Shown: one piece after another, positions 37,901 through 61,900 of the stretch
Layout of the letters: each line of letters opens with the position of its first letter
Numbering within the stretch: the stretch's first letter is position 1
Origin: an uncultured Gammaproteobacteria bacterium
GTDB lineage: Bacteria; Patescibacteriota; Microgenomatia; UBA10105; UBA927
Assembly: GCA_964349125.1 (NCBI GenBank)
Contig: CAYGFH010000002.1
Location: forward strand, 174,484 to 238,483
Reading direction: 5' to 3'
DNA: 64,000 nt
Notes under the pieces: generated by a model
Database searches by the model: none
Seen by the model: only the letters and a program-made list of their open reading frames with translations
What the model was told of the DNA's origin: nothing
Program-made: the position numbers and the translations under genes

Positions 37901-40900
37901 TCAGAGCTTCTGTCCATTCCCCGGATGTAGGCACCTGTTTTTTTGGGTATTCGACAGGTTGGACCCTACCAACAGGTTCAAACCCTATCTCACTGGAAGC
38001 ATCGTGTGATACCGTCACGATATATTGATGTGCAGCTGCATCATGCGGCGCTCGTTCGAAGGTGAGTACATCACCAGGTCGGATTTGATAGGCAACTTCG
38101 TTTCTCAAGAGTTCTGACCCAATGTAGACACTTTGTGTAAATTCTTTTGGCAGACGGAGCCACATGGCGTCACCTGAAACCCCCATGTATACATATCCCC
38201 CATTGATCACTGATGGATCTGGAAGGCCATCCGAAGGAGTAGCGATCTGGTTTGCTACAGAGGTAAATCTCACGACTTCGTCGGGCGCATCTTGCGTAAA
38301 CCTGAATCCGTTAAAACTTTTTGTGAATGTGTCTGTGACAACATCATGATCCAAAGCCACTTCTACTGCTTTTCCATCAACAGTATAGGTAGCCTTCGTT
38401 ATGCTCATTTTTTCCAAAATTTCAGTAAATTTGGTTCGCAGCTGCAAGCCCACAGATATATCCGTTTTATTTGTTTCCACTGCTTGAGGATTGATGTCTT
38501 TTGTCAGATTGAAAAATTCCATAATCTGAGCAATTCGATTATTTGTGGATGTATCCAGCTTAAATAATGTCCCAATCACACTGTCCTCAAACGCGATAAA
38601 GTGAGATTTATATTCAGGAGACACGAAGTCATTGAGTACCTGTTCTCTAGCCTGCTTCCAGTATGTGCCATCTGTATCAGGAGTTTTACCAGCTTCCTGC
38701 AGCTCATACGCGCGACGAGCTATCATGAAAGTAATGGAGAGCGCTTCATTTGCCTCGCGGGTAAGCCAAGGCTCATACCTCGTTGTCATACTGTGACCAA
38801 ATTCATGCGCCACAAGATCGTCAAGAAACGCCTGTATTTTTTCGTCAGATTTTGCGAGCACAGCTGCACTCGCACGAAGAACAACCATATCAAAATCATG
38901 GTCATAAAATCCGGGGATTGTTTGGGTATACTCCGTAATCTGAGAATCTGTAGGATTTACCACACCATCAAGCCGCAGTTTTCTTCTGGCAAATGCACGA
39001 AGTTCCCGGTCAAACGATACATCATCAAGCACAGCAACTGTCCGCTGCAATACAGTGCTGTCCGATGGGACACGTGCAGCTTTGGCAAACGCAACGACTT
39101 TATCGACAGATTGCTGCACTATGCTACGCTCCAACACTTCCTGCTGAGTCAGCCACCGCAGCAGTGCCTCCTCGGTCTTTGATGATAAGACATTTCCGTT
39201 TCTTTCAATAGGATAATTATCAGGATCATAGATGTGTTGCCTGTAATACCCCTTGATTGAATGGTCAATTACCGCAGTATCAGGATCCGAAAGCGCGACG
39301 CTCTGCAGCGCAAACTTAGCCTGTATGAATGCGGGCGATTTACCGATATTCCGGATTGTCCTGTATGTTGGATAGAGAAACATCAAGAATTGATCCATGA
39401 GGTTTGCTTTTTCCCGCAATTGACCCGTCTTTTTGTCATATATTCGTCGATCGTTTATGACGGTTGACACATCTGAGACAATCTGCCCAACTGTGGCGCT
39501 CATTTTCATGAGTTTTACGGCTATGGAATCGTTGGCTTGCAATGGTGAAACTGCTTGCGATTGACTTCGTGCTACTCCCACTTCACTGTTCAATGTGGGT
39601 TGAACACCTACCTTGTTCATTGCGTCGATTATCACATTCCAATCTTCCGGCGGCGGATAATGACCGCTTGTCCTTCTGGTCATAAACGATGATCTATTCG
39701 GCAGCGGTGGCTCGATATTCTTCATATCCCATGCAAGCACAAACGTAAAAAAGCTGTTCAAAATATGATCAATACTTTTTGCTGTTTTTTCTTCCGAATC
39801 CGGCACTACCAGTTGTAATCTACCCTGATTTACCAGTTCACGCATCTGGGTTTTATACTTGAAAAGATCCTCAAGTGATGCAAGCATAACCAGATCCTTC
39901 CCGGCCATTTCCGGGTTCTTGCGTTCGGTAGCTGTGTGTACTGAGCGGGAGGTCACGATATGAAACCCGTCTGAATACACATCCAGATTGTCATATATGC
40001 GTCCGAGTAGACTGGTCCATTTCCCTTCATACCTCAGTACAGGCAGGCTTCCGATAGACATAAAGAATCGCCTCCAAGATGCCGGAAATACGGGATTATT
40101 AAATACTCTGGTTGCCCATTTGAGAAATTTATCCGCTCGTAAAGCGTTACCTTTGAGTTTTGTATCCGGATACAATAATGACAAATGATTGGGATTATTA
40201 TTTACAACAGACGCATCGCCTACGAAGCGCACATTTTTATACCGTTCATCTTTATATGTTTCAATACCAAACATTTCTACCGTGTAGGCACCGTAAGAAT
40301 GGCCTAGCATCAGTTCGATCTGTTCAGAATCTATGCCCAAGGCGGCGTTACCGATCTTTATCTGCCTGATCACATCCTGCACCACATATCGTCGACTCCC
40401 GCGAAGAATTGGAGGTTTCGCTTTATTTAACGCCCAATATGCTAATTTGCCAACATCTGTTACGTTATACCACCATGCCTGCAATCCGGTGATCCGTTTG
40501 TAATTCCCATCACTATCAAGCACGGGTTTTCCATCCTGCGTCGTCTCCACCACCCAGCTTTTCTTGCGCGCGGTTTGTTCTGCCCCACGAAGCGATTTGG
40601 CATCAGCAAATACAGGATTTTCTAGCGTAGATTCAGGAATGGCAAATTTCGAGAACAAGCGGAACACTTCCTTTGACGCATGGAATCCGTGGATAAAAAT
40701 GCGGACTTTCTTATTTTTATTTGCCAACATTACAGTTATTCTGTTTAGAAATTCCGGATGATCATTTTGTTGCAGACGTTGTAGCTCTAGGAGCGTTTCA
40801 GTCGGTAGTCGGATGGTAAGTAAATCAGCCGAATACTCTGCGCTGGGATCTTCAACATCAGATGAAATGGTTTCAAACTGAAAAATTCCGGCCCGAGGAT

Positions 40901-43900
40901 CAATAAACGCTGACTCTTGAACATAATATGCTCCTGGAGCAATTTGCATACTTACTGTCATCGTTTTTTTGGCTGCTTCTATGCGTTTTGCCGCGCCTTC
41001 TATTTGTGCATCGGCTTTGAGCTGTTCTTCACCGAGTCTCCTTTTTCGATAATCCAATAGCGCCCTTCCCACTAATCCCTTTTTTACACCAAAAAAATCT
41101 TTTTTCGTGAATTTCGATTCCACATCTGCATTCCAATACTCAGCGAGATTTGTCATATTTCTCTCTGTTAAGCCCAGTCGTTCCAGTACTATGCGCCCTC
41201 TTTGTGATGATGGATTCAGCAGTTCGTACACGGCCTTACTTTCATCGGACGTTGGTTCATGCCCTTGAGGGTCATTGGCAAAGTCTACAAATCGTCTGAT
41301 AATGTCCATAACCTGCGCATCCAGAGCGGGCTCATCCAAAGAATCAAACGCCCGTTGATAACCCACTTCCATATCTTCATGAGATGTCGCGCCTGGCTGT
41401 TGTTCGGATTGATCCAAAACAATAGGCTCAGCTGTAACCGTAACAGTTGCCAGACCTGTTCTCCCTATATATTTTTCACGCATATGTTCCGGGAGTTTTG
41501 ACAGAGAGAGCGCAATATTGCTATATGTGCTGTCGGGCACCAGGAGATACCATGCACTTGCCTCTGCGTCATACACCGCCGTTACATCAATATCTGGCAC
41601 AAGTGTGCGTAGATACTCAATGATTGTCTTAAACGCAGCACGCTGAGATTCATCTGACTTGCCATTTTGTGAGGTATCCTCCACACCAATGCGAACTGCT
41701 GTTACAAAATTATTATTTGCTTTGCGCCTGACGTACGAAATAGCATCTGCCCCGGTATGAAATACCCGAACTTTCGGCAGTCCCTGCTCCATAGATGAGT
41801 TAACAGTCAGTTGTGAAATCCGATCTACAATTTTCTTACGAACAGCATCAACATCGACCTTGGGGTTCGTTCCGGAAGCCATTTCGATTAATGGCAGGAT
41901 TGCTGCCTGTATATCCGGCGGAAACGTCGTATAAAAATCACTTACTCTTCCTATGAGAGATGTATTGGATCTCACAAGAGGGCTTGTCTGCGATGTCTCA
42001 AACTCTCTTTTATTTTTTATCGCAAATTGCAACTCCCTATTTACCCGTCTTCCATCTATGATAGCCGGAACTTGTAATCCATTTCTAAAGAATGTTCCTC
42101 CGAGGTATTTTCTTAATGCTGCGCTCACATCAGTCGGAATTTGCGTATCGCTGGCATTGTCAGATAATATAACGAACTCCACACTCGCAGGGCTCTGCCT
42201 CACTACGATTTGATAGGTGCTAGATGAACGGGTTGTACGTGCCAGTTCGGACTCTATGCGATGGGCTATCATACGTAACACCGTATCTCGAAGCATGGAA
42301 TTTTTTGGCATTGCAGCGACGATCTGATCAATGTTTTTTATAAGCAGACTGCCTACAACAGTCTGTCCCCCATCCCGAATCAAACCATCAAGAGCTACTT
42401 CATTAAACAATAAAGATTGTAATGCTTCTCGTGAATTTTTTGCTTCACGCATGAATGTGAACAACCGACCAGACTGATACCATGGGAAATGCGCACTGAC
42501 ATCTGATTCCTCTAGTACCTGCTCTGATGGATCGTTTAACGTATGATGTATTCTCGACGCCAAGCTGTTCAGGATAGATTGCACGGTCGAATCTCCAGTA
42601 GTACTTGGAAAAAGTGTTCTGAGGCTGGAAACTAATTCCGTCCCCAACCATTTTTCAGCCAGATCGCGTTGTTGGGAGGTGCTGACAAGCGGTGCTGACG
42701 GCGCTATGGGAGCATTCTGTGATGGCGCACTGACTGATTGCGTTGGCAGCCGTATTGCATCTCCCTGTCTTAAATTTTCATTTTTTTTTTGACGTATTGT
42801 CTCCGCCCGAGTTTCTATCGATGACAGTGTCTTTTCCATTGGAGCCAACACAGCATCTATGGTGTTTAATACTGCCTGTAGCGCTGCCCCCTGTGTGTCA
42901 CCGTTTCCTTCATATCCTAAGACCAGGAAATTCACAAACGATGCGCGATCATATGATCCTGACTTCACCGCAGTACCGATGGCGGTAAACAACGCATCGG
43001 GATTTATCCCAGACTCCAACAGCACATCATATCCGATAGCCGAAAAAATCATTTGCTGTTTCTCGCCTACTCCAATATTTGTTGCTGTGACGATATCTCG
43101 TGCATCTTGCAACCGACGCTTCAAAGTAAAAAACGATTCTCTAATGAGTGCAATTTTATCCGGTATCTGCTCTACAGGGATTTTCTCGAGGTCTGGAATA
43201 AATGTCGCCGGGAAAATCCATGGAGTACCGCCCTGAAATCCTTCTTTTAAGGCTGCTTCTATATCGCTTTTTGCGAGCGTGGATTGGTTTTGATTCAAGA
43301 GCAGGGCGCTATCGGGAGTAATTGCCTGCGCCACTTTTTGTCCAAACCCTTCCATATTACCCTCGTACTCGGGTGTGAATTCAATAACAGGTACGTTTCC
43401 CGCATTCGCTTTAATTCGGGCAATCTGTGCTTCAGGCAGACTATTAGCAACCACTATGGCATCAAGTGTTTGCAAATACGCCAAATCCCTATCCGCAATT
43501 GCCAGTGTCGTACTTGCATTCGCGCCGTCAAACTGGAGGCTTTGGACAATTCCTGAACCATGAACTGAAGCCGGATCTACAACCAGAATTTTTTTGTTTG
43601 CCAACAGCCCACTAGACACGGGTATTGCTTCAGCCTGGTTACCAGGAATCGTCGAGTCCTCCAAATCCGCCTCATCACCGGCATTTTTATATGCATTCGT
43701 TGTATAGTACGAGGCATCTGAAAAATTACTGCTAAACTTTGATCCGAACTTTCCATCGCCGAATGTTGCATTATACGCACGTTCAAATGGCGTGATATCT
43801 CCGGACAGTGCTGCGTCAAAAAATAGCGACCACACCTCTTGTTCGCCCAGTTTCGAACTGGCTGCCAAGCGAATAACTTGCTGGATCAATTGAATTGTTC

Positions 43901-46900
43901 CGCGTTGGTATACGCTCGCTATATCAATAACAGCATCGTTCAGATATCGTTCTACATCCGATATTTTTGGACGCTGTGTTCCGGTTTGAAATATGGTCAA
44001 TTTTTTCCCTTTTTGTTGTGCTATCGCGATATACACCATCGCCTCATCCAGAATCTCTTTATATGTTGGATTATTTCCGGGATAACGCTGCGACGATGTT
44101 CCTTTTTGCGGTATATGGAGCCTCTCATGTAAAAATACGTGAATTAAGGCAGCTATCTGCTTTTCCTGTGACATTTTCGCTATTTCTGTATAGTTTATAA
44201 ACAATTCGGATACATCATCATCAGCATGTCTATGCAATCCGGTAAAGCCATCCGAGTACAGCTTTTTTGCCAATTCATTACTTACTGGATTTATGACCAC
44301 ACCCTTAAGATACTTTTCTCGTTCTTTGAGCGTGACCGCTGTGGAGGGTGGTTTTTCAAATAAGGATGAACGACTCTTACCGGTAAGACTTTCCACTGCA
44401 TCACCGAGTGAGTCAACTAACGCATCTGTATTGTTTAGCAACGATTTCTTGCCTGCAAATTCGGTTAAAGTGTCAATTGCAGCCAGTGTATGTCCGAGAA
44501 GCAAGTATATTTCTCCTTCACTGAGCTGATCAATTTTCTTTATCCCTTTCCCTTTATAATCTGATGTTCTTGTTATCAAACTATCTATTCTTGTTCTCAT
44601 CCCAATATCAAATACGGGGAGGACATGTTCTCCCATATCCAAACGGCCTATGACATATCGATAGGTTCGGTCAAGCCGCGTGAGCTTGTCTTTTTTGACC
44701 ACTCCAGAAAGCATTTTTTTTGCGTCATCTATAGAAATACTTCCAGCCTGATTATTATTTTCCTCTCGCACTTTTCTGACTTCCTCCGACAATATTTTAC
44801 GCAAACCGGACTGGGTATCCGCGCGCTGAAGTGTAAGTTCTTGCCTGTTTCTACTCAATTGCGCAACTATGCTCACACCGTTTGTGAGCGTAATTATTGA
44901 CTTATTATAAAGTGTGGTTACCTTTGCTTTTGTCTTTATCTTTTTCCCATCCACCAAAATTCCATTAGTAGATACGTCACGTACATACCACACACCGTCA
45001 TTGACAAATATTTCTAGGTGCCGTGCATCTATCGTTTGATCGTTGCCGTCCAATATTATATTGCTCACGTTTGCAGAAGAACCCAATGAGGCTATAGTCG
45101 ACCGGACATCGTTTTTATTTAACTTCGTTGTTGCGCCGTCTGTTAATATTTTTGTAGCTGTATCTTGTGAATATGAACGGATACTACCTGCTGACCCAAA
45201 AAATGCAACCTCTTTTCCACTCTTCTCATCTATCAACTGCATCCCACTGGATCCCTTGCTCACAATAAACGATGTGCCCCCAATGGTAAGTACATCCCGA
45301 TCGTTTAATAGCGTTTCTGAATTATACGCTTTTACAACAAGATTTATGTCGATCTGTGATTCTGTACTGACGTTTTTCACATACCAGTTTCCGTCTGCTT
45401 TTCGTACTATATTTACGCTCACAGCAGCTATATCAGTGTCCCCGCTGACTATGATGTCCGCTTGATTTCCTTTGCCGAGTGTAAATACGCTACGGATAGA
45501 GGGGTCTGCATACGTTTGCAACACGGATTCCCCGGTTTTATTCACGAACGCGTCTCTCCCATACCGCCCGATGAACGCAGGCGTCAACCGGATACCCGCT
45601 TCCTGCATAAATAGCGCAACGTCCGTGCGATAATCAAATGTAGTCTGATTCTTCGCACGACCGCTTATGATCCCTATATCTACAGCGTGGTCCTTTAATT
45701 TTTCTGCCTGTAAATCCTGTATGCCATACGACCACTGTTCTATATGCATAAGCGCTACGTTTCGCAACTGATCCATGGTCAATTTGGATATATCAGTGTT
45801 TCCAAGCATGAGTGTGCCTTTCAGATGCTGCGATGAATTTTCGAATCGTAACCCATTTTCGGGATCAAGCGTGTTTTTTCCTTCATCAACAAGCATACCT
45901 ACCCCTTCGGCAATTTCTTCTGCGTTCGATTTAGATAACTGAGAAATGACTTCCTCATATTTACCTGATTTCATCATTTCGATTGCCTGTTTTACATGAT
46001 TAATATATTTTTTCTCTCGTGCGTTCCATTTTGCAGACGAAAGCAGTGCTGGAAACGGATCTTTGAGCACCTTTGCCGAAGGCATAAGGGAGTCAATTTG
46101 AGCGTTCACGTCCGCAATCACAGCCCGTACCTGACTGACACCTCGTGCCAATCTGGCAATAGGCAGAACTGCCCCTTCCAGCGCATACCTGATATGCTCT
46201 AGTGCGCTCAGATTCCCCTGTGCTTTTTTGATCGCCTTCTCATAAAACTTCAACGACTGTTGTATGAATTTTGTTTGCGCCGTTCGTTTCGCGTCCCCTG
46301 TGAGGATCTGTCCCAATGTCTCTTCATTATATTTTGGAATATCCATCCCCAGATAATCCGTCAATTGCCCCATAGGCAGGAGATAGGTACTCATAGCTAA
46401 GATCTGTTCAGCGGAGGCACGAAGCGCTGCTTCTTTATTTTTGGGGAGCGATCCACCCATATACTCACCGTACGCAGCTTTTCCTGCTGCCATAAGCTCA
46501 TCTACTTGTACGCTTTGAATACCATTCAACACATCTGCCGGACCCGATTGCGCGCTAAACGATTGCTTCAGTGACTCCAGTAATTTTGCGTACATGGTCG
46601 CACCCATGATACTGTCGATTCCGTCGGCTGATATTTTTGTTTTGTTATCCAGCGCATCTACAGCCGCAGTTAACTTATCTACATCTGCTCCTGCGGATAC
46701 CACAGATGAGACCAATCTCACATTGAGCGATTCGATAAATTTGATGATTTGAGCAGGATCACTAGGTACATCAAACCCCAGATCAGAAAGTGCTATACCG
46801 ATCGCTTTGACATCTGCTGCATATGCGTCTGGGGCGATAATTCCGTTTGCGACTAAAGCCTGTATTTTTGAAAATATTCCTTTTTGATTCCCATCTGTTA

Positions 46901-49900
46901 ATCGTTTGTACTGAACTAATATGCTAGCCTCTACCCCAGATTTATTGAGAAATCCGTTTTCATCAACATCATCAGCTATTATCCCTGCTTGCAATCGTTT
47001 AATTTTCCCGTTAATGCTGTTTGTCAGCTTCACTATATCCTCTGCCCTACCAATCATGTCAGTCAATGGAGAAAGCCCGGTCATGACTACCTTGCGTATC
47101 TGTTCAGCTCGATCAACCGTTTGAGAGCGTCCAATGGCTCTAAAAAACGCCGGAAGAATTAATGAACTGGTATAGTCTTGAATTCCCCGTACGTTTCCAC
47201 CTATCTGCGTAATGATCGGCCAAATAACATTACTCCCGATTTTTGTAAGTTCCATTAATGAAGCTAAATCCACGGTGGCCACTGAATATCTTTGTAGTGC
47301 AATCGAGGCATCGATTGCTTCATTCATATCGGTGGCTGATATAGAGGTGAGTTCTGGTCTGAATTCCTGAAGCTGACTCTTGAAGACGTCACGTACCTTT
47401 TTTTTATCAATTTTATTTAGTGCGTCCAATTTTTCCTGAATTGTTACAGGTTTTGGCCGTGTTCTGTTCATCTGACTCACTATTTCTTCTTTGATAGTGG
47501 TAAATACCGTCAGGTGGTAACCGTCTTTTGCTTTTTCATCTGTCCATTGCAGGAAATTTTTGACGGCTTTGGCAAATGGCTTGGTTGCAGAATCTGCCGT
47601 CATGGCGGATGAGAATTGTGCTTTATCCAGCTTTCGTATATACGAAGCAAGTCCGGTATAGGTCGTTGCACTTGTCTTCGCCAGACCTAATGATTCCAGT
47701 TCGTCCGCCAGTTTTCTCAGATCAGCCGTTGCCCATTCTTTATTAAGTAATTTTTGAGAATCTGATAACCCTTCAAGCGCTGTGAGATTATTTCTGACGG
47801 CAAGAAAATCTTCATAGACTTCATTCACTTTATCGGTTTTCGACGCCTTTGGAGGGGATGCCTTTGGCTTAGCCACTTTCGTGTCATACTGGTCGCGCGC
47901 CTTGGTTTCCATACTTATTGCTACCTTATCTACCCAAGCTTCATATACATCATCTGACACAGATCCCTTCGCGACAGCATTCCGTATCTGTGTAGTTAGA
48001 CTTCCAAAAATGAGCTTCCTTCCACTTTCCAATAGAGATACACCATACGCAATAATTTTATTTTGTTCTGCACTGGTCCATGCGCTTGAAAGCGCTCCAA
48101 CATCCTGCACAATACTGTTTAGTTCCGCAGTCAGGAATGTATCTACCTTTGCGGTAGGATCTACTGCCAAAAGAGCAGCGAATTCATCTGTAGCCTCGTA
48201 CTCTGCTCTCCGATCCCGTACAATCGTTGGAACAGAGCGTTTTGTAGACAAAACATCCTCAATAAAATCCCCTCTATATTCAGCTACATATTCGGCAAAC
48301 GCGGTGCGCGCGGCATCCTTTGCAGTGTTTGCAGCAGCAGGTCCAGGTATCTCTGTGACCGGAATTTGCACGAAATCACCATATTGTATATTTCGCAGTT
48401 GTAGCGGTGTAGCACCATTCATTTTTTGATATCTGGCGGGAGCAAGCAATTTATTCGCCGGATCGATAATAAATGCGATCAGATTGATATTTATCGTATC
48501 TTCCGCTGATGATAGTGTGCCATTTTTCACATAATTCATTTCGGTCTCAAATATATTTGCCGCTATGTCTTTCAATTGTTGTTTGTTTACTTCCGTGCTA
48601 CTAAGATCTCCGAACCCTCTTTGAATTTTTATACGAATATCGTCATTCAATACGCTCGTAAATCTCGTTGAGGTTGAAGGTAGACTCGCGGCATCAGCAG
48701 CGGCGATAGCCATATCTGAAGCTAACAGCCCCTGATATAGAGTGAATGCATCCTGCGCGGTCAGATCACCCGGGAGCTTGTTTTGATTCACTATCACCTG
48801 TGCCTTATCCATAAGCAACTTTCGTCCTGTCGGTGTCGCGTAATTACCACCTACTATAGCTGCGGGTGTGACCGCTTTTGCCGGTAATTTAGACAGTTCC
48901 GCCGCTTTTCTGTCCAGCCAAACGAGGAAAAGTTGGCGCGTAACATCTGTGGCTTTCGGTTGATCTGCGATAGCACTCAATAATGCAGCTTTCGTATCTG
49001 CTATGGATTGCCCCTGATTCACAGTTCCAGCTGCCACCGCTCTATCGGACGCCTCATTTAACACCGAAAGCTGTGCAATAATTCCTTCTGTAAATTGCAG
49101 TGCGTAGATCATTTTTTGGTCTTTATCAAAAACTGTATTGGTCCGATCCGGGTTTGTTGATCCGGGTACTGTCATCAGAAGGTTGACGATATCCAAGGTT
49201 GCTTTATCCGGTGTTTTTTTCAGGATTCCTTCTTCGATCATAGAAAGTAGCTTACCAACATTTTTTGCATCCGCGATATATTTTATCCACGCTGTTTTGA
49301 GATCGAACATCACCTGTGCTCTCTTTTTTGTCGGAGCATCTGTCAGAGCGTCCAATTCCTTTTTGTCTATCGCTTTATTGGCAAAATTTATCGCTTCTAA
49401 GGTGGTTGGCTTCGCAACCAATGCATCAAGTTCTGCCGTGGCCGCCAGATTTGACAGCGTTCCTTTTTGATTATATGGATCGGACGACCAGTACTCGAAA
49501 TATCCTCCGGGGGTAACCGATGAACGAAATAGATCAAATAGTATAAGTCCCAGACTTACTTTCGGTACCATGATAAGCGGCAATCCTCTACTTCCCAAGA
49601 ACCAGCCGGTTTTATTTCTCGGCGTTGAGAAGAGTAATTTACTAAACCATGAGTCAGTAACTTTCCATAAATTCTGCTTCCATTGTGGTAAATCATCAAA
49701 TGATGCAGGTGCAGGAGCAAATCCCGGAATGATTTTACCCACCGCTTCGCGCCAGGGAACATTTGCCCCAGTTGTATATACGGCAGGTGCTGCGGCGCCG
49801 GTATTCATATATCGGTCTACCCAGCGCATCACATCCATGATAGGAAGCCACCACTGTTGTGCGCCAAAGGCCACAAAGAATCGGGTAACTCCCCACACCG

Positions 49901-52900
49901 GCCATTTGAGCACATTGATAACAGGGTGCACTGTCGGATCATTCCACTGCGTCGGGAATAGCAGTTCGTTTGTATCGAGCAAGAATCTCCATGGAGAATC
50001 TTTAGGAATTTTCTCCAGGAAATGTCTACTTTCTTGGAGGAGCCAGAATGGCAACCCAGCGTGCAAGCTCACGGCACCCTTTGTGAACGTAAATGCTGTC
50101 CACCAGTACGATCCTCGGATGCCTGCCGGTACCAGCTGGGCTAACCATTCTATCCCGTTTGCACGAGGCCAGGATACGCCGTATGAACCAAGGAGTGAGG
50201 TAACTTTAGACCAGAAAGTATCTTTTACTTCATATGTACTATCTGAAAGCGTAGTAGTGACCCCAGCTCCACCGGTTGTTCCCGGGGTGGTATGTTGTAC
50301 TGCAGCAGGTGTCCGATTTCTGAAACGGTTGTTTATGACCATATTCAATACGTCCGTACCTATGAGTATGGGATTAAATCCTGATAGGCTCCAGCGGGTT
50401 ACAAGAGACACCGTTTTTATGACACCCCATGTCGGTGTTTCATTGTTCCCTAGCGGATTAGGCGACAAGATATATGCATGGATACCGTATAGATTTTTAT
50501 TGCGATCAGGAGCACTATCTGCAGGCTTTGGTATTACATTAATCATCGAAATGATGTTAGAGAAAATAAACAGTGACGTAAGCAAAGTAAATCCCCTAGC
50601 CCAAACAGTTGTCGAAACTGCTGTACCTGTGCTTACCGCTGTGGAAATGACAGGTGCAACTGCAAAGGCAATTGAGATGGCGTTTAATGTCAGGGACAGA
50701 CCGGCAATTGTGGCAAAAGCCCCAATTGTCCATCCACCCCATATCGTTATCTTTGCAAGTGTTTTTTGAAATCCGGTAAAACTATCTGACCAATCCATTG
50801 TTTGAGCGAACAGAGCTTGAATCGATTCTGCTGTTCCAGCAAATACATCCGCCACGAATCGTGCCCCGTCGTGAATAAGAGTCGGGATTATCAACTGTGG
50901 CACAAAGAGGCCTCCGACAAATCTGGTGCCTACCCATGAAACGGTTTTCCAGAATCGTGCCGGCGGCGTCAGGCCCTTTGCCCAGAAATTTGGGAAAAGG
51001 ATATTATCCCCTATCCAGGCGTGTGTAGTCTTAAATGTTGGATTATCGGAAAGATGAACTGATGTATTGTATACATCGTATGCAAGCCAGGGAACACCCA
51101 GTCCAAATGTCTTTGTAATGATAAAGACTGCTGTTCGCCCGGCTGAAATAGCAATTTGTCCCCATTGGAATTTCTTTGTAGTACCGTCATACAACTGAGG
51201 ACGCACCACTGCGTTTATGATACTCCCAAGCCATGAACCAGCCTTTGCGACTGCACCTGTGACGGTTGATTTTGTTGAAGCAGGAGCCACGGGAGAGGAC
51301 GAAAATATACCAAACACATAATTTGTCGGCACTTTTGTATCCACAGATTGAAGAACATTTGCATCGTACGCGTAGGTATAGGTCGTGACGTCAACTGGTT
51401 TTGAATCTATGGTCGTTCTTCCGGCAATTCGTGTCGTCCCAATGAACCGACTGTTGGCATCTCTATACGCTGCGCTCAGTCCGACATCCAGACCTACTAC
51501 GGTTCCGTTATGATACACCGGATCTTTGAGAATGTTATGACCATGATACAGGACGGGTGCGGTAAATATGCCACGATATGCATCAGAAATCGCACGACTG
51601 GAACTGAATTGACCATGATGCGTCAAACTGCGAAACAGCGTACGCAGTTGAGGCACGCTTGCTAGCCGTATTTGTGCCCGAATACCGGCATTTATCCGTC
51701 TAACCACGTCTTCCGGAGTCAGTTTTTCTGCTTTAACTCGCGCTGCAATTCTGTTTATATCGTTTATATCCAATTCATCATAATCCTGCACGGCGGCTAT
51801 GTCATCACTAAATATAAACTTTGCATAAATAGCGGTATCGGTATGTTGCATGACTGATTTATCTGAGCGAAGCGATATCCAAGATAGGTTTTCCAACCAT
51901 CCGCGGATTAATCCAAGGTGCTTCTTTGCGATCGCTACTTCTCTCCTTGAAACACCGTTTCTTTGGAATAAATCCCATCTTGGCGAATTATCCGGCTCAA
52001 ACATCGCCCAGAGGAATTCCACTTCATGGTTGCCGCCAAGCATGGTAAATTCTGATCCTGCAGCTTCAGCCTGAGACTTGAGTGCCGTTAGACGATTGAG
52101 TATTTCAAGGCCGGGATAATACTTATCTTTTTTGCGGGCCGGATCGTTTTCCAAGAAAGCCTGTATGTTGCCATCTTTATCTACACCACGGTCCATATAA
52201 TCGCCGAGGAATATCACCTTCGCGCTATTGCCCCCTACCCACTCCCAACTGCCGTCAGATTTCACGGTAATCAGATTATCGGCCTCGAGCATCTGTTGAA
52301 GCTTGGTTACATCTGAATGATAATCCGCATACATATACCTGAGCGTTTCCGCCTGTGTTTCGGTAACTTTGACTGTTTTTTGTGTTACTGTCTTTGTGCT
52401 CGTCAAACCGGCCATAATTGCCGTCGTGATTGTGGCAAAGTTCGGATCGACAACCTTTGTGACAAACTCATCGTACGCTGCTTTCGCTTCGGCCTGCGTC
52501 AATCCTGCGGCGGTCAGCTTCGCCAGTATAGTTGTAGTATATGCAGTATTACTAAATCCACTCTTAAATATCCCGGACCTGACAATGACCTCCACCTGCT
52601 CTGCTGCCTCATCAGGACGAAGCGGTGTATCTTTGAGCTTGGCAACTTCTGCAAGGATAGCTGCCCGCTGTGAGGCAATCAGTTCAGCATAGGCCGTTCG
52701 TAGAATCGCGAGCGCGTCCGTATTCTTTTTAGCTTTCTCGGCCGCAATTGCAGGATCCACCACAGGGGCAACGACTGGTGGCGCAGAGATTGGTGGTGCT
52801 GAAACTGGCGGTGTAGTGACTTTTACAGAATTTAACACCGGCTGTGTCAATGAGTCTAACCATGCAGTATAGTCGATAACTGTTGCATCACTCTGCAATT

Positions 52901-55900
52901 TCGGCAGAGATGCCAACAACGTTTCTTTTCCTGCGAATTTTGCCTCCATATAGGCTCGGATATTTGCGTCTTCGTCAATTGGCACATCATCCCGCGCTTT
53001 AGCCATCACACGTGCTTGAAATATAGCGACCAATTCATCATCATCGGTCAACAAAGACCCAGTTAATCCAAGTCTCGTAAACTCGGTCTGTAATGATTCT
53101 TTAATCACTTCAATGTATGCAGTGTAGAGCGTCGTCAAATTTATAGTTGTTTGGAGAGTACTGTTTGAGGCGACCAGCTTTTGGTATGCATCATTGGCTT
53201 CGATAACCGATGGAGCATAGACAGATCTTCGAATGTGTGCACCGGAATCTGCATCGCTAACACGCGCAAGCAACTTCCCACCCAGTATTCCTAGTGGTTT
53301 TTTACGGCCACTTTTCTCTGCATAAAATACGATCGTGTCATCAAAATTTAGCACTCCCCCGTTTGTTGGTATTCTCCGTCTTGTTGTATCAGTTCCGATT
53401 GTGTACCACACATCTCTATCAAGCGTCAGGGCGATCACATTCCCTTTTCCGCTGACCACATCTACAACAGGTATCACATCACCTTGGCGCAAGCTTCGTT
53501 TCGCCGCTTTTTGGAGGGAGACATTCCCGGCATTTGCTGATTGCGCATCTACAACGGCTTCCCATGCAGTGGCAAGCGCATCTTGTTCTGGCAATGCTTC
53601 AATTTGGGCGGCTATAAGCCCTGTCAAAATATCGGAGCGCTGTTGTGGGGTCTTCGTGCCTGTGATTCCAGCCGCGGCAATACCCTGCGCAATTGCGGCA
53701 GCACGAACAGCAGCGTCTGATAATGTCGTATCAATAGGTACACCTGCAACAGGTGGGATAACTGTCGCTGGGGCACCAAGTGGTGGCACAATTGTCGTAC
53801 CGCCGATGCCTTGCAACTCTCTGCGAACTCGAGCAGCATCTGCAAGCATGCCGCCAATCCTGGAATATCCTGTGTTATGTTGCCTTGCATCTATAAGGTA
53901 ATGCACAACATCGACGATAAATCCGACGCCACCGGTGGCAAATTGCCTGACTATGAGCGCCCTCCACTGTCTCGTGCGCTCTGCGGCTGACCATTTTGGA
54001 TTCCATGGTGATGGCAATAGTACGTAGTTCATGAGCATGTCTCGAACAGATGTGGTAGGAACAGAAATGCCGACGATGCCACTTATGTCAGCCATAGGCA
54101 CTGAGGAGACTCTCGCAGCCGCTATTTGTGCGACGCTGACCGCAGACCCTAGCGCATCACCTAGCAGCTGCGCTCGAAGGCCATCTTCACCCATAGCTCT
54201 CACAGTGGATAATCGTGTTGCAGTAAATAGTGCATGTACTTCTTTATCAAATGAGGCTTTTGCAGATGGATTCACTAATGTTTCCAGTACCTCCGGAGTG
54301 ATATTCGGATTGCTGTTTCGTTGCGCAGCTTGCTGTATAGCATCAATATAGGCGACAGTTGCGTTTTCCAATGCCGTAGTTGACTGAGAGCTACCGGTAA
54401 ACACCTGTCTGACACGCCCTCTGATATCCTGATCAAATATCTGATCAAAAGCTATAACTTGGGCCTCTGCTCTATCTACTGTTTCCTGCGCGATGGCTAT
54501 ATCACCAAATGCAGTCGCAGCAGAAGAGACATTTGATCGTTGTATGGTCGATGATGGCTTAATTTCTACCGTATTTGCGCTTCTTTGGAGCGCGCGAATC
54601 TTTGCTGCGCGACTACCCTTTAGAGTTGGTTTTCTGGTACCCGGCTTTATGTAAAATGTTGCGTAGGTGTCGAAATCACCTAATGTCATAGCACTGACTG
54701 AGATTTCGGTTACGCCGCCTCGTGGTCCGACGAGTATCATGCGGCCGTCATCTGCCACCGGTATATTACTTATTCTATCACCTGTCTCAAAAATCTTCCC
54801 GACCATATCTATGCCTTTTACCGTGGCGACCTGGGTACCCGCAGTTTGCGCAAGTGCATCGCGGTTTCTTTCTGCGGATATTTGAAGTGAAAGCGCTGCA
54901 GCACGACCGGCCATAAATGTATTTCGCTCTTCATCTGTGATTTGCTGGCCGGTTCTGATTTTCTCCGCCACTGCCATCGCTGCGGTAATATATCCTGCCT
55001 GAACTTGCGCGGACTCGAATGCTGAGATGCTTCCTCGAGAGAGTGACGAGCTTATTTCCATATCAGAGTCAATTCGTTGAAGCGCAGGCAGCACGACCGG
55101 CCTCGGCCGCCAAATAAGATTTGCTACAAATGGAGCTCTGGCTTCCATAAATGTTCTAAATCCTGATTTGGCTACTGGTGTGGCTTGCTTCTGTACGACC
55201 GGCTTTATGTCCGGTTTACCTGATCCGGCTAATTGCTGCGCTTCTGAAGATGCCTTGACCGTGGCATTGTGTGCTCGTTGATACTCTCCCAGGTCACGAG
55301 CCAATAATGGTGGATCTTTACTGTCTATTTGCACACCTTCCGCAAGATAACTCAGTGGATTTGTTCCTGTATTTCCATTCATCACATCCCGATTGATTGT
55401 CAAACGCTTAAACAAATCCGGGCTGGAACGCTCAATTATGTCTAGATACGGTTTGTTTGCAGGATCGTCAAACAGTGCTTGGAATGATTTGGTCATTTGT
55501 GCGAATTGCTCGTTTCTGGCCTCGAGTGTACTTCTGGCGCTTGAAGTTGTACGGACGTCTCTACCGCTCGCACCTGAGGATAGATCTAAGAGCTTCACAG
55601 ATGCCCACTCGGCGATCCGCTGTGCTGCAGGATCTGAGGAGGATCTGTATCGCAAGATAATGTCTTCGAGCGGCTTCTTTGCGGCTGACTCAAGTCCTAG
55701 AGAATTAGCCTGTGCTGTGTTGAATTTTTCCAGCGTTGTTTGTGCATCGGCAATCGATTGTTTAAATGCAGCAAACTGCGTATCATTCATCTGGGCACGT
55801 GAAAGTGTAGAGAATTGTCCTGCCGTGTCATCAACAACGATGAGATATTGCGTGGCAATCCATTCTTTCCGATCAAGCCTACTGGCACCCTGAACGACAA

Positions 55901-58900
55901 CTCCTTGAGCCGTGTCTTTTGTCGTGATGGTAATACCCGGGATATTCTCTGGCGTTGGAATGTTATCTCCTGTTGCGCCTCCCCGACTGATGACGACGTT
56001 GAGATTTGCTTCACCACTGGCGAATCGTTGTGCCAGCTTTCCTGATCCTCCTGTCGCATCCGGAATTCGTTGTGACAGATTTCCCGTCGCATCTGTATAC
56101 CCAGCCTGAATGGATCCATCCGCGTTAAACTTCACGTCATAATACTCAGATCCTCCAACTTGAACAACCCACGGCGTATCTTTGGGATATTTTCCGCTCA
56201 TTTGCTGTCTTCTGGCGTACTCGATCGTGCTCATGTTGAGGTCGCCTGCAAGGACATGTTTTGCACTTCCATTGGAAGCCAGGCCATTCGGGCCACTTGA
56301 ATCAAGCTTCTTTCCTGATCTGATTGCAGCAGCTATATCGATAAACCCATCGCCTGAGGCACGATATGACCTATCCGCAGTTAGTCTTGGAGGATTACCA
56401 TCAGCACCGTTAAATATCTTGTCAAACGTTGCGCTGCTCTTGGTAACACCAAGTTGGTATGAGTTCTGCAATACGCCTGCTTGTTCTGCAATGCTTCCTG
56501 TCACGGCTCGGACCGCTCCGTTGGCGTACCCGGAGATGTCTGATATTACGTCGTGGAATCCTGACTTATATGCACGATCTGGAGCCACTTCCAATCCTTC
56601 AAAGTTTGGAGGCGTTTTCCCAAATGCAGTTGCACCGATAGCCTCCATAACAGCCTGCATTCGTGAATTATACGTTTGCCCTTCACTCATGGATCCGGAA
56701 TTCCCAGGGATTGTCACTAATCTTCCTTTTGCATCAAATCCTCTAAAGAATTCGGTGTCATACGACATGGTAAGCCCTGATGCATAGCGATTGGTCGCAT
56801 CCACTAGATCAAGCACTTTTGCGATATCTCCTTGGGGAATACCTAATTTCTGCGCTTCAACTGCTAATTGGGCCGGGTTAGCGCTTGCGGTATTAAGCAC
56901 CTCGGCATTATCGACAATCTTCATAAAGACATCGGTCGGGATTCCTTTTTTCTGTGCGAGCTTTGTGTATATGAGTGTTTGTGCTTCCTTGCTAAATCGG
57001 GCGTCTTTAACGACAACGCCGTTTGCATCGATCACTTTCACGATAGCTGGCTTCCCTCCAATCGTTTTTTTCACGCCTTGATCGGGTACGCCTTGCTTCA
57101 TAATGGCTACGTCGTCAGCGATCAATACGTCATACACATCTTTGGCGGCTCCGACTACCTCAGGCGGCACAACAGCTCTCGCCGATGAGGCTGGGTTTAT
57201 CATCTGAATAGACGGATCAAATGCAAGCTGGAGTTCATCCACGCCGAGTGCGACATTTGCAGTTGCGAGTCTATATATGTCGCCTATAAGTGAGCCTTTT
57301 TTTGCATCCAGCCCGTATGTCTCCAATGCCATGTTTCTGATAAAGGCAAGGTCTTCCGGTTCTGTCAGTAGGATTTTTCCGGATGAAAGTTGATCGTGAA
57401 TTCGTTGCAGATCAGCAATATCTCCTCGCAAATCATCTGATTTTAGCCTCACTACTGACTCCTCACCATTTGGCATAAGTGTGCGCAGTTGCTGTAAAAA
57501 TGCGTCTGCCTGCCCTTTTCTGGCCACGTAAATACCACGTTCACGACCGAATACTTCCACATCTACTCGCAACATAGCCGTAAGAACCACTGTTTTTCCT
57601 CCCGATGTGACAAGTTCCACGGCTCTCGCATTATCCCCCAACAGGGACATCATGGTGTCTATTTGATTGTTTTTCCATGAACGATATTCACCGTCGAGCA
57701 ACCCTAATCGAAGTTCGGTATCACCCATGATTGTTTCAAACGCAAGCCCTGCAGATTCATCTAACCCCTTGGGGAACACAACCTCCTGGGCACTCATTTG
57801 ATCAGCAAGGCGCTTTGTTAGACTGGCTATGAGCTTGCTGTCACGAGATTTTCCTTTTATCGCCAACGCGGCATCCAACTGGGATTTCGTAACCTGTATA
57901 TCCCCCAACAGGCCTAGTTTTTTGATAGCTGATTGTACATCTCTCAACTGGGAAAGCGCCTGTACACGCTCCCCTGCGGGCGCATTGGACGCAAGTTCCT
58001 GCGCCCTGGTGAGCGTTGTGCCAAGCGTATCCATTTCTGTCTTGATCTGAGCGTTGAAATCCTTTTGAATCTGATCCCTTTGTGCTCCATCTGTGGTTTT
58101 GCGTAACTGAGTATCCCGCTCGATTTGCAGGTCTGTAATTTTCTGTCTACTCGCAGCTGCCTGCTCAACAATCGAAGCTGCATCCCGAGCATTCGGTCCA
58201 CCCGCATCTACAATCTGTTTGGATGCGTCTATTCTCAATGCGACGTGCGCCTCCTTGATTTTGGCGATTGTAGTCATTTTCGCCACATCTGACGGATCAA
58301 TCAGAGAACGAACGCTCCCTTGTGTTTCACGAATAAGTGTGGCCTGCTCTTTCAATAACGCTCGTTTCTTTGTTTGAGACGGCGAACCGGCCAATTCCCT
58401 GTCTATACCGGTAAGCCTATCCAGCTTATTGGATATTGTTATGAAATTTGATTCCATGTATGCAAATTGCACCATGTTTTTGGTATTGTTCACTTGCGTT
58501 TCGGCAGCCCGGGCAATACTGTCAGCTGCTTTATTGATGTATTTACTGTCGGTGTACCCTGCGCTTTCAAGTGACTTCTTGGCACGCTCGAACGCGAGTG
58601 TGTATAATTCGCTTTCACCCGTTACGCCTCGTTTTTGAGACATCTCAGTATAGACATCACTGATTGCCTTTTGGACCGCATCTACATCTCCTGTATTTGT
58701 GCCTATTTTTGCTTTTATGCGGGCGCTTACCTCTCCGGCTGCAAGATCAGTCGCCACTATTTGCTCTGTGCGCTTTTGCACAAACGCATCATTGACTTGA
58801 GTCAGTTCATTTTGTGTTGTTCTCCCAATACGTATTGCGCCCGTACCATCCGGTCGTCCGATAAATCTCTCTCGGACAGCAGCTATGATGCGCTGAACAC

Positions 58901-61900
58901 CGCGTGCGGTATTGCGAGCCACAGTCAATTCTTGAACTTTGGAATTCAACAATGACACATCTGCGCTTAAGACAGATAGTTGCTCTTTCTTAAGCTGTAA
59001 TTTCAATTTAGCGTCAGGATCATTTGATCGTATACCATCAGCTAATAATTTGATCTCGGTTGCACGCAATACTTCAGACTGAAGAGTTGCGATACGAGTA
59101 TCCAGTACTGCCCGTCTCTGTGACAAGGCAAGTTGTTGCTGTGCTACTACATCCGGAAGAACGGCATCTCCAGTTACTACGCCCTGCGCATCCACAGTCT
59201 TCCATACATACTGACCACCTTCTTGAACTGCCTTAAATCCGTTCAAAACGGTAGCGTCTATCTCAACTGTTCCTACATTCCAAACGCCTTTGGCGGCATC
59301 CCAAACTGGTGCTCTTGAGGAATCCCCAAGCGTGTTGCGCGCCGAGACGGCAGCCTGTAATTCGTTTTGGGCATCTATGACGGCTTGTTGCGCTTTCGCC
59401 CCGCTTTCATCCTGAATTCTTAGAACTTCGTTCAGCAACTGTGCCCGATCTCTGGATAATGCAGCTATCTGATCCTGACGGGTTATAATATCTTCCTGAA
59501 TTACCAACTGCCTGGAAGTTAACCCGATGGATTCAACTTTCTGTCTCGCTCGAGATAATTGTTGCAGTGCAGCATCATATTCCGCGGTACCTACCGAGTA
59601 GTCTTTGGCGACGCCCATGAATTTTTCCTGGGCGGCAACATATTCTTGCTGTATAGTTCTCGAACCTTCACTTAACCCATCAAGAAGTCGTTGTGCGGCA
59701 TTTCTGGGATTTTGCATGAGTGCGCGTTCAGCCTCGACAGACGATCGATATATGAGTAAATCATTGGTAGCTGATTGGTAATCACGAAGTGCCTGTGCAT
59801 ACGCAGCAGCATCTGGAGAGAGTGCTTTTAGGGCTTCTTGCGAGAGTAAATATTTGGATTGCGCTTCTTTAAATTTCAGTGCAGAGGGCACATCATCGGC
59901 AATATTGGTTAGCGCTTGTTTTGCAAGCGCGAGCTCATAGCCCTGTGCTCTGATAGCAGTCCGTAGCTGCGTCATAGCAGCAAGCTCTTGTTCAGCCATG
60001 ACAGTGGGTAAACGATTTCCGTTTGCATCGTACATTGACTGTAGCGAGCGACTAGCTGCATCTAGCTGTACAGCTGCGCCGTCTTCGCTGGCCTGTACCC
60101 TTGGACCTCCAGATGTTGGAGTTTTCAGCCCAACACCAAAACCTACTGTTGCCAACGTCGCTTGTGATATAGATTGAGCACATGCACTCGCATCTAACCG
60201 TGCCGCACCAGAAAAACATGCGATACCAGCTTGTAGCGCGCCGCCGCCAGCGTCACCCGCATCAGCAATCTGATTTGTCACAAGCGCGGTTCGAGCTATG
60301 GAGGCTGGATTATTGGCACTAGAGATTAGTGATGCCCCGGATGAAACGATGCGGAATATAGATCCTGCAACCGCCACAGAGTTTGCAGCACAACTCATCG
60401 CATCTTTTTGTCGCCCACCGTTCCCATCATCATAGCCGATAAAACATGCGTTAATGGCTTCGCGGCCCGAGATTATTCCACCCGCGGCACTGAGAGCTAT
60501 GTTGCTATATTGAATCCCACGCCCTGCGCTCATTGTTAATTCTGCCGTTGTTGCAAGAGCGGCACCATTTGCCAGATTTTTGGCATTGTTCACCAGCTCT
60601 ACTCCTTGCGCGGCATTAATTGCAGCATCTGATACTTGAACAGTTTTTTGTATCGCCTGCTGTCCTAAGCTATATGTGCCGGCTATTGCACTAAACGGTA
60701 TCGATGCTGCCTGCACGGCAGTATTGAGACTTGCCCACCGACAGTCAGTCGATGCCACTTGACCTGGCACACACGCAGTTGCGGTACGCTCTAAACTGGC
60801 GGTTGTTCCAATAACGCTTGCACCGACACCGGCTACCGTCAGATATGTCATTGTGGTACCGGCTCCGGCAGCAATCAGCGGCGCAGCTGCCCACGGAGCA
60901 AGCGCTACTGCAGCAACTGCTACTGGAACTGCGGCAACAGGAGCACCTTTTATGAGTGACCCCTGACGGAATTCCGCCATTATCTGCTTTTCTTCTGCGT
61001 TTCCAGCGACTGAATTATAAATTGCGCGTGGTATGTTAAATGCATTTGCTGTCATAACAAGGTTTGTCATCCCTTGACTATCTGCATACCATGCATCTTT
61101 ATGCAGCTCCTGATATTGAGTAACTGCATTCATCTGAATATCATTTCCGCGCTTTACCGCCCCGCTGGTGAAATTATTTAATACGTTCCAAAATTTCATC
61201 CCGACACTAAAATCGTCAATAACTTTTTCTACATCGGTTGCGATCAATTCCCCTCTTTGGAATTGTTCGTATGCCTGCTGATATCCTTCTTCTCCTTTAA
61301 TATTTTGATACGTTGGCGCGACGTCTTCCCATGCGCGAATCTGTTCATTTTGGAAATCTTCGAATGTACCTGTGGGATTGTCTTTCTTATATGCATCAAA
61401 TGCCTTAAGGTAATTTGCATGATACCCATTTGCAGGATCAGAGAGATATGTCCTGACAGCTTCATCTCTTGCTTTTTCAAACTCTCTACGCTCTGCTTCT
61501 GTCTTGAACGTTGACGGATCTATTATTGCTTCGAAGTGTGCGTCTTTTCCTTTTCCTACCAATACAGGGACATAGTTAACCTGCATACCAGAATATGGAT
61601 CAATTCCGCTGCATGTTTTTTCATCAACAGTACAAAATCGTCTGGCACCTGTGTTTGCATCGTAGATAATCGCCCCATCGATACAGGCGCCGCCTCCGCA
61701 GGCTCCATTGCATTGTTTTGTGCTGACAACAGCACCGTCACCACGCTGTCCAGCTGTTGGATTGAATGTTTCTACAGAGTTTCCATCTTCTGAGCATCGG
61801 TTGTATGCGGTAGATTGCCACATTCCAAAAATACCACCTACTTTTACTTCCACTTGCCCGCTTCCTGCCCCAATTACAGGACATCCGTCTGCTCCTTCCA

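Follow-up and report, generated by a model that had tools for sequence, protein, structure and literature searches.

Giant bacterial proteins are mostly unannotated "dark matter," and the membrane placement of polypeptides of at least 10,000 amino acids (aa) is an open question. Among bacterial proteins of at least this length, 94% carry a signal peptide or transmembrane (TM) helices, of which there are 22 on average; 80% are sequence singletons, and 15% lack any domain hit (10.64898/2026.06.07.730766). Giants threaded by internal TM-helix clusters are best described in Omnitrophota, and a SecA_DEAD-like domain is present in "most" full-length giants (West-Roberts et al. 2023, 10.1101/2023.11.21.568195; 10.64898/2026.06.07.730766). 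Here, we analyze a 64-kb stretch of DNA (contig CAYGFH010000002.1 of assembly GCA_964349125.1, positions 174,484 to 238,483; hereafter the window), the only genes of which are two tandem giant open reading frames (ORFs) on the minus strand, genes A and B. Within gene A lies a Trp-rich, low-charge hydrophobic block of 588 residues, which we suggest may anchor the protein in a membrane. The gene and the block have the following coordinates:

31947..63998, minus strand: gene A, at least 10,683 codons, open to the right window edge, with its stop codon at 31947-31949
49527..51290, minus strand: Trp-rich, low-charge hydrophobic block, gene A aa 4194-4781, 588 residues

A Trp-rich, low-charge block in gene A

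Residues of gene A are counted from its first in-window ATG, at 63869, which gives a protein of 10,640 aa. An earlier note on this DNA had described a Trp-rich block of ~590 aa at 49527-51290 in the middle of gene A, and this is borne out (aa 4194-4781, with 31 Trp), as are the aromatic motifs that it listed: YWW (4588-4590), WPVWG (4656-4660), and QQWWLP (4671-4676). It had also placed the block 4,100-4,700 residues from the C terminus, which swaps the two ends; it is the in-window ATG that lies 4,194-4,781 residues away (roughly 4,200-4,800), and the C terminus is 5,860-6,447 residues distant (roughly 5,860-6,450).

As a reference for the composition of the block, we took every other window of 588 aa in the two genes. 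Its 31 Trp (5.3% of 588 residues) contrast with a mean of 5.2 (sd 3.0) and a maximum of 16 in the other windows (binomial P ~1e-14); charged residues (D, E, K, and R) number 76, compared with a mean of 137 and a minimum of 91, and there are only eight Glu residues where the mean is 36. Nowhere else in the ~21,000 residues of A and B does composition deviate so strongly. It is also really coding in the sense frame and not a chance fluctuation; the sense frame has a codon score of +0.17 bits/codon, whereas the other five frames score -0.086 or lower, and G+C content at third codon positions (GC3) is 0.41, compared with 0.40 for the remainder of gene A. We considered foreign, inserted, or noncoding DNA as the origin of the block, and rejected it because GC3 is unchanged and the sense frame is coding. 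No paralogous segment of the block was found in A or B, and the block itself has no internal repeats. The only tandem DNA repeat nearby is a two-copy 9-mer (18 nt, 51753-51770), which lies outside the block.

Hydropathy and anatomy of the block

The block stands out in Kyte-Doolittle, Eisenberg, and Wimley-White scans alike, which supports its assignment to a membrane. Non-overlapping 19-mers with a Kyte-Doolittle score of at least 1.2 number eight in the block, compared with 0.63 expected per 588 aa elsewhere, and those scoring at least 1.6 number three, compared with 0.09 expected. The gene A segments at this higher threshold are at 4390, 4428, 4763, and 978, and the Wimley-White and Eisenberg scans agree. 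With an Eisenberg mean hydrophobicity (<H>) of at least 0.5 as the threshold, there are 10 segments in the block, which holds 59 of the 127 such windows of gene A; similarly, a Wimley-White interfacial sum of less than -4 kcal/mol is found in 21 windows of gene A, 17 of which fall within the block. The block has four parts:

50802..51263, minus strand: N-terminal part, aa 4203-4356, four weaker hydrophobic or amphipathic segments
50529..50750, minus strand: core, aa 4374-4447
49584..50528, minus strand: Trp/Pro-rich (also Phe-rich) region, aa 4448-4762, 20 Trp
49527..49583, minus strand: closing hydrophobic helix, aa 4763-4781, LPLIMVPKVSLGLILFDLF, with one Lys and one Asp

The core begins with a 51-aa uncharged stretch (4374-4424; the earlier note had given 45 residues), which is followed by Arg4425 and then by a 22-aa uncharged helix (4426-4447) that is apolar and contains Ser, Thr, and Asn. 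Kyte-Doolittle scores in the core are 1.83-1.87, the Wimley-White octanol sum falls to -10.9 kcal/mol, and Eisenberg <H> is 0.65-0.72. The 51-aa stretch is most simply read as a helical hairpin, 4374-4394 plus 4395-4416, with Asn4396 at the turn. Around the core are amphipathic segments with a hydrophobic moment of 0.47-0.57. The four segments of the N-terminal part (4205-4222, 4239-4264, 4310-4334, and 4338-4355) have one or two charged residues each, Kyte-Doolittle scores of 0.96-1.36, and hydrophobic moments of up to 0.53.

On the other side of the core, partitioning of the region at 4448-4762 into the interface is strongly favorable, with Wimley-White sums per 19-mer of -4 to -7.7 kcal/mol. 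Its interfacial segments include SYWWTAFTF and KWPVWGVTRFFVAFGAQQWWLPIMDVMRW, PW and WP pairs are recurrent, and three marginal hydrophobic segments lie within it (4494-4512, 4593-4611, and 4650-4681). The closing helix, 4763-4781, has a Kyte-Doolittle score of 1.89 and a Wimley-White octanol sum of -6.4, and is probably a fourth TM helix. Only three helices are both charge-free and of TM grade (4374-4394, 4395-4416, and 4426-4447), and the remaining segments of the block are amphipathic, interfacial, or marginal. The earlier proposal of a polytopic, Trp-rich membrane domain is supported by every hydropathy measure run, but of its "at least six" apolar helices only three or four are of TM grade, the others holding one or two charged residues each.

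Two further approaches bear on the topology of the block. A single-sequence AlphaFold2 model of it has a predicted local distance difference test score (pLDDT) of 33, too low to interpret. Positive-inside counts made by hand are balanced for three- and four-helix models alike, and on that account we discarded the positive-inside rule as a topology guide.

Features flanking the block and their parallels in gene B

Gene A carries the following features outside the block:

60180..63998, minus strand: Cys-pair region with Pro/Ala/Thr linkers, aa 1-1230 plus an upstream extension
60792..60947, minus strand: second apolar uncharged stretch, aa 975-1026, 52 aa, Ala/Val/Gly/Pro-rich
44886..45086, minus strand: FHA domain (PF00498), aa 6262-6328, ~1,480 residues downstream of the block
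38562..39254, minus strand: HExxH + NE domain, aa 8206-8436, AHEFGHSM...REANEALS
32277-32450, minus strand: Cys-bracketed motif, aa 10474-10531

Cys residues are distributed very unevenly in gene A. There are 38 within aa 2-1230, mostly in pairs 8-20 residues apart, then none across aa 1231-10482 (9,250 residues, window 32424-60179, on both sides of the block), and a last three at 10483, 10504, and 10638. Short-range Cys pairs are a signature of disulfide loops in exported proteins, and because the Cys residues of the N-terminal part form pairs of this type, that part of the protein is probably extracytoplasmic. The 52-residue uncharged stretch at 975-1026 reaches Kyte-Doolittle scores of 2.0, is flanked by Cys pairs at both ends, and is followed by ~200 residues of low charge (9.5%); it may be a membrane hairpin. 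The flanks of the block, which had been described as soluble for thousands of residues, are therefore not entirely so.

Over the more than 10,600 residues of gene A, Pfam recognizes the FHA domain alone (E=6e-14; 52.7 bits, compared with a gathering cut-off of 20.7), and its region has a weaker YscD/TagH-type match too. FHA domains are phosphothreonine readers and are normally cytoplasmic.

Gene B has a comparable set of features, all likewise on the minus strand:

31304-31360, minus strand: N-terminal signal-anchor-like helix, aa 65-83, after a very basic stretch
21293-21472, minus strand: Cys-bracketed motif, aa 3361-3420
17036-17206, minus strand: Cys-bracketed motif, aa 4783-4839
6326-6946, minus strand: HExxH + NE domain, counterpart of that in gene A, aa 8203-8409, AHEAGHDM...NEGMA
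5831-5911, minus strand: Gly-rich hydrophobic segment, aa 8548-8574, just upstream of the GNAT domain
4658-4867, minus strand: GNAT acetyltransferase domain, aa 8896-8965, E=2e-8

The 22 Cys residues of gene B are spread over most of it, the majority as short-range pairs. GNAT domains need acetyl-CoA.

The HExxH domain is the only sizeable region common to A and B (28-30% identity, E=2e-12) and lies at a near-equal distance from the in-window starts of the two genes, with NE ~19 residues past HExxH in each. It has no Pfam match, and the motif, on which the assignment rests, suggests a gluzincin-like zinc metalloprotease. An AlphaFold2 model from a two-sequence alignment has a pLDDT of 58, and a Foldseek search of the PDB with it returned nothing significant, the best peptidase match having E=0.6. 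The Cys-bracketed motif, D-C-x(6-7)-F-x-[RF]-L-x(2-3)-V-F-A-x(4-5)-C, is present in three copies, one in A and two in B, and is probably a small disulfide-loop module common to both giants.

Search for relatives

No relatives of the block were found. An exhaustive phmmer search with a 788-aa block query against 1.84 billion representatives gave 0 matches at E<=0.001. Word-seeded protein searches of 5.8 billion clusters with the block, aa 2901-5600, and aa 7401-10100 yielded no match, long queries probably being less sensitive in such searches. Likewise, back-translated pattern scans, made with the block and with the A/B alignment, found no match in species-representative genomes, JGI metagenomes, or IMG/VR, and neither did tblastn against phages and plasmids, a PHROGs search, or searches of PDB sequences, where the block gave no hit at E<=1.

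Among Pfam and NCBIfam models, aa 4094-4881 matched only VHP, TMEM43, and DUF2842 at E<=10, all of them spurious and far below cut-offs. The earlier note had proposed searches against toxin translocation domains and RND/MMPL-like folds; we ran them, and models for toxin translocation and pores (the large clostridial TcdA_TcdB_pore, diphtheria T, colicin pore, and RTX), type III secretion system (T3SS) translocators, and RND/MMPL in the two databases failed to match the block even at E<=10. We rejected an RND/MMPL-like transporter on these grounds (no ACR_tran or MMPL match) and because the block has three or four TM-grade helices, compared with about 12 helices and two large loops in such transporters.

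With Pfam run on A and B both whole and in 1,000-aa chunks, Pfam, NCBIfam, and PHROGs recognize just two domains over ~21,000 residues, FHA in A and GNAT in B. By these comparisons, the gene A protein appears to be an orphan, with no detectable relatives in the protein or contig collections searched, from which the sequence of the window itself is missing too.

The block as a possible membrane anchor

The reading we favor, in which we place about half of our confidence, is that the block is a membrane-embedded anchor, co-translationally inserted in the cytoplasmic membrane of the producer and splitting the polypeptide between compartments. The core helices 4374-4394, 4395-4416, and 4426-4447 would cross the bilayer, and 4763-4781 probably would too; the Trp/Pro/Phe-rich segments would sit in the membrane interface as an aromatic belt, and the four weaker helices at 4203-4356 would pack on the core or rest on the membrane surface. 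The N-terminal Cys-pair part would then lie outside, and at least the FHA-containing downstream part inside. We favor an anchor because disulfide-type Cys pairs lie upstream of the block and an FHA domain lies downstream. Gene B has a parallel layout (signal anchor, Cys pairs, a second hydrophobic segment at 8548-8574, and then GNAT), and the two layouts, taken together, suggest proteins that pass through a membrane and have parts on either side of it. We infer the spanning of the bilayer, the number of spans, the identity of the membrane, and the sidedness of the flanks; the strong evidence covers three or four TM helices and interfacial aromatic segments, not a large transporter-like bundle.

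Several observations weigh against this placement. Cys is absent from aa 1231-10482 and bulk composition is alike on both sides of the block, such that the composition registers no change of compartment. The Cys-loop motif at the C-terminal end of gene A (10483-10504) recurs in a presumably exported part of B, which would put the C-terminal end of A outside as well and would call for further spans. The positive-inside rule gives no clear answer, the span count could be three, four, or more, and AlphaFold2 run on the block with no alignment reaches only the pLDDT of 33.

The leading alternative, possible but on balance unlikely, is that gene A codes for a secreted protein and the block is its facultative insertion, pore, or translocation module, with the hairpin and the Trp-rich segments entering a target or host membrane. 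Such a module would either perforate the target membrane or carry the C-terminal part, with FHA and HExxH, into the target cytoplasm in the style of an AB toxin. The uncharged stretches (51 + 22 aa), read as a hairpin amid amphipathic helices, would match the general layout of the pore regions of colicins, diphtheria T, and large clostridial toxins (LCT), and the extreme interfacial energies of the 19-mers resemble those of membrane-proximal Trp-rich segments of fusion proteins. The 9,250 Cys-free residues around the block are expected if the protein passes unfolded through a narrow channel, FHA, HExxH, and the gene B GNAT domain would serve inside the target cell, and the organisms known to produce giant proteins live as predators or in association with hosts. 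However, the block has no similarity to families of toxin translocation domains, pores, or translocators, even at E<=10, and none to PDB sequences, no receptor-binding or processing domains are recognized, and the window, which holds the two giant genes only, contains no immunity or secretion genes. The same pattern is, moreover, equally expected of an ordinary anchor. A pore-forming or translocation role, one of two that the earlier note had proposed, thus finds no positive support in Pfam, NCBIfam, or PDB sequences; the other, an anchor dividing the protein into halves with different locations, fits the context of Cys pairs and FHA better. If the block were a facultative insertion device, it would define a new translocation module.

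It is improbable that the block is not a membrane element at all and that its apolar stretches are instead buried, as the hydrophobic, aromatic-rich core of a large soluble domain or surface domain (a helical solenoid, for example, or a module that binds carbohydrate or lipid). Seven of the ~11 hydrophobic segments contain charged residues and have Kyte-Doolittle scores of only 1.0-1.4, and the summed Hessa dG is positive in all windows (+2 to +11 kcal/mol, on a position-independent scale). Trp-rich surfaces are typical of glycan-binding domains too, and TM predictions on giant proteins are acknowledged in the literature to be unreliable. A soluble core of this kind is, however, hard to reconcile with 73 almost contiguous uncharged residues (51 + 22) at Kyte-Doolittle scores of 1.8-1.9. 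Soluble proteins seldom contain such stretches, and the other 20,500 residues of the locus have them only at the candidate membrane segments A 975-1026, B 65-83, and B 8548-8574. In addition, charge is half of the locus norm across nearly 600 residues.

A bolder proposal, which we consider quite doubtful, is that the block is a novel, self-contained Trp/Pro-rich device for membrane insertion and translocation, apparently unrelated in sequence to any toxin T-domain, that moves the ~5,900-residue Cys-free C-terminal part of a secreted mega-toxin, including FHA and HExxH, across a prey or host membrane, in which case A and B would form a new class of giant AB-like effectors.

The antisense ORF

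Opposite the block is an additional long ORF:

49570..50769, plus strand: antisense ORF, 399 aa, inside an open stretch at 49471-50766 (433 codons)

A real overlapping gene here, with dual coding partly shaping the composition of the block, is very improbable: the frame has a codon score of -0.086 bits/codon, near those of control regions of the same frame (-0.155 and -0.169), the product (2.3% Cys, 3.2% His, and few acidic residues) is unlike A and B and has no Pfam match, no ribosome-binding-site-like (Shine-Dalgarno-like) sequence is present, an exact-sequence look-up did not return it as a called gene on record, and by our own rough estimate the chance of one such gap in a 64-kb window is a few percent. 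The length of the gap is nevertheless unusual. There are 0 stops in 433 codons, compared with 6.1 expected from the amino acid sequence and codon usage (P ~4e-4 by synonymous resampling); shuffling of codon order gives an expectation of 8.7 stops, with none of 5,000 shuffles stop-free, and elsewhere in the same frame of gene A no stop-free gap is longer than 222 codons.

A stop in the antisense frame needs one of two sense contexts, Tyr preceded by a codon with T or C at its third position, or His or Gln preceded by one with T there, a rule that we derived from the frame offset and verified by counts. Because Gln and Tyr are scarce in the block, its amino acid composition lowers the expected number of antisense stops from ~10.8 to 6.1 in 433 codons. 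Composition, which the earlier note had given as the explanation for the antisense ORF, therefore accounts for a part of its openness, and the remainder is most simply chance; the note was right that the ORF exists and should not be annotated, and it is almost certainly not a gene.

The locus

The frame of gene A runs open from 31950 as far as the window edge at 63998, and the 43 codons 5' of ATG 63869 (63870-63998, minus strand) are coding-like and include an extra Cys pair (ECIQKAGGVQAEITKCIAQ). The open frame and these upstream Cys-pair codons point to a true N terminus beyond ATG 63869, which is probably not the true start; the protein is then longer than 10,640 aa, and the gene almost certainly begins beyond the window. 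Gene B and the region that separates the two genes are as follows:

31553-31946: A-B spacer, ~400 nt, AT-rich
31552 to the left window edge, minus strand: gene B, open, at least 10,517 codons

The spacer has no terminator-like hairpin, and sigma-70-like promoter sites are not in excess in it relative to shuffles. ATGs at ~31527, ~31456, and ~31356 are start candidates for gene B, and no Shine-Dalgarno-like sequence was found before any candidate start. There are no internal repeats in the ~21,000 coding residues of A and B, and no marker genes, tRNAs, or Rfam families were found within the 64-kb window.

Comparison with known systems

The delivery domains of TcdA and TcdB, diphtheria T, and the colicin pore domains have in common with the block a mid-protein site between large soluble parts, and the core and amphipathic segments of the block may correspond to their central uncharged helical hairpin with amphipathic helices around it. 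Unlike them, the block has no match among their Pfam models at E<=10, is three to four times longer, and is far richer in Trp and Pro; and unlike large AB toxins, gene A has no recognized receptor-binding, autoprotease, or catalytic toxin domain. The bilobed hydrophobic domains of chlamydial Inc proteins and the T3SS translocators similarly contain 40-60 uncharged residues that can be read as two helices with a tight turn, but these proteins are only some hundreds of residues long and carry their secretion signal at the N terminus. No homology of the block to them was found, and the window shows no T3SS context. Staphylococcus aureus Ebh-type surface proteins are Sec-exported polypeptides of ~10,000 aa with a hydrophobic, membrane-spanning anchor; Ebh, however, has repeats and an anchor near the C terminus, whereas gene A is repeat-free and continues for ~5,860 residues after the block.

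The closest likeness is to the giants of the Omnitrophota type. In common with these, the gene A protein exceeds 10,000 aa, has scant Pfam content, no sequence relatives, and a second giant gene adjoining, and combines predicted internal TM helices thousands of non-membrane residues apart with occasional enzyme or signaling domains. As for the features that define giants with internal TM clusters, gene A has at least 10,000 codons and predicted internal TM helices, but no SecA_DEAD hit; neither this domain nor peptidase C39, dockerin, or TSP3 was found in the 21,000 residues here, although SecA_DEAD, C39, and dockerin are typical of the described subtypes. A and B both run past the window edges, and a SecA_DEAD domain could lie beyond them. 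TM density in gene A is also low, with ~5-8 candidates per 10,640 aa compared with a mean of 22, and the Trp enrichment of the block is a further difference, the word "tryptophan" having 0 occurrences in the giant-protein literature text examined. Most bacterial proteins of at least 10,000 aa carry many internal TM helices, which weakens the earlier suggestion that a polytopic block at this position is unusual. With few candidate spans, Cys pairs on one side, and FHA on the other, gene A is a compact case in which giant-protein topology is testable by a handful of fusions. Setting aside its Trp richness, which is not a described feature of these proteins, the block adds one more orphan case to a pattern that most very long bacterial proteins are already reported to follow.

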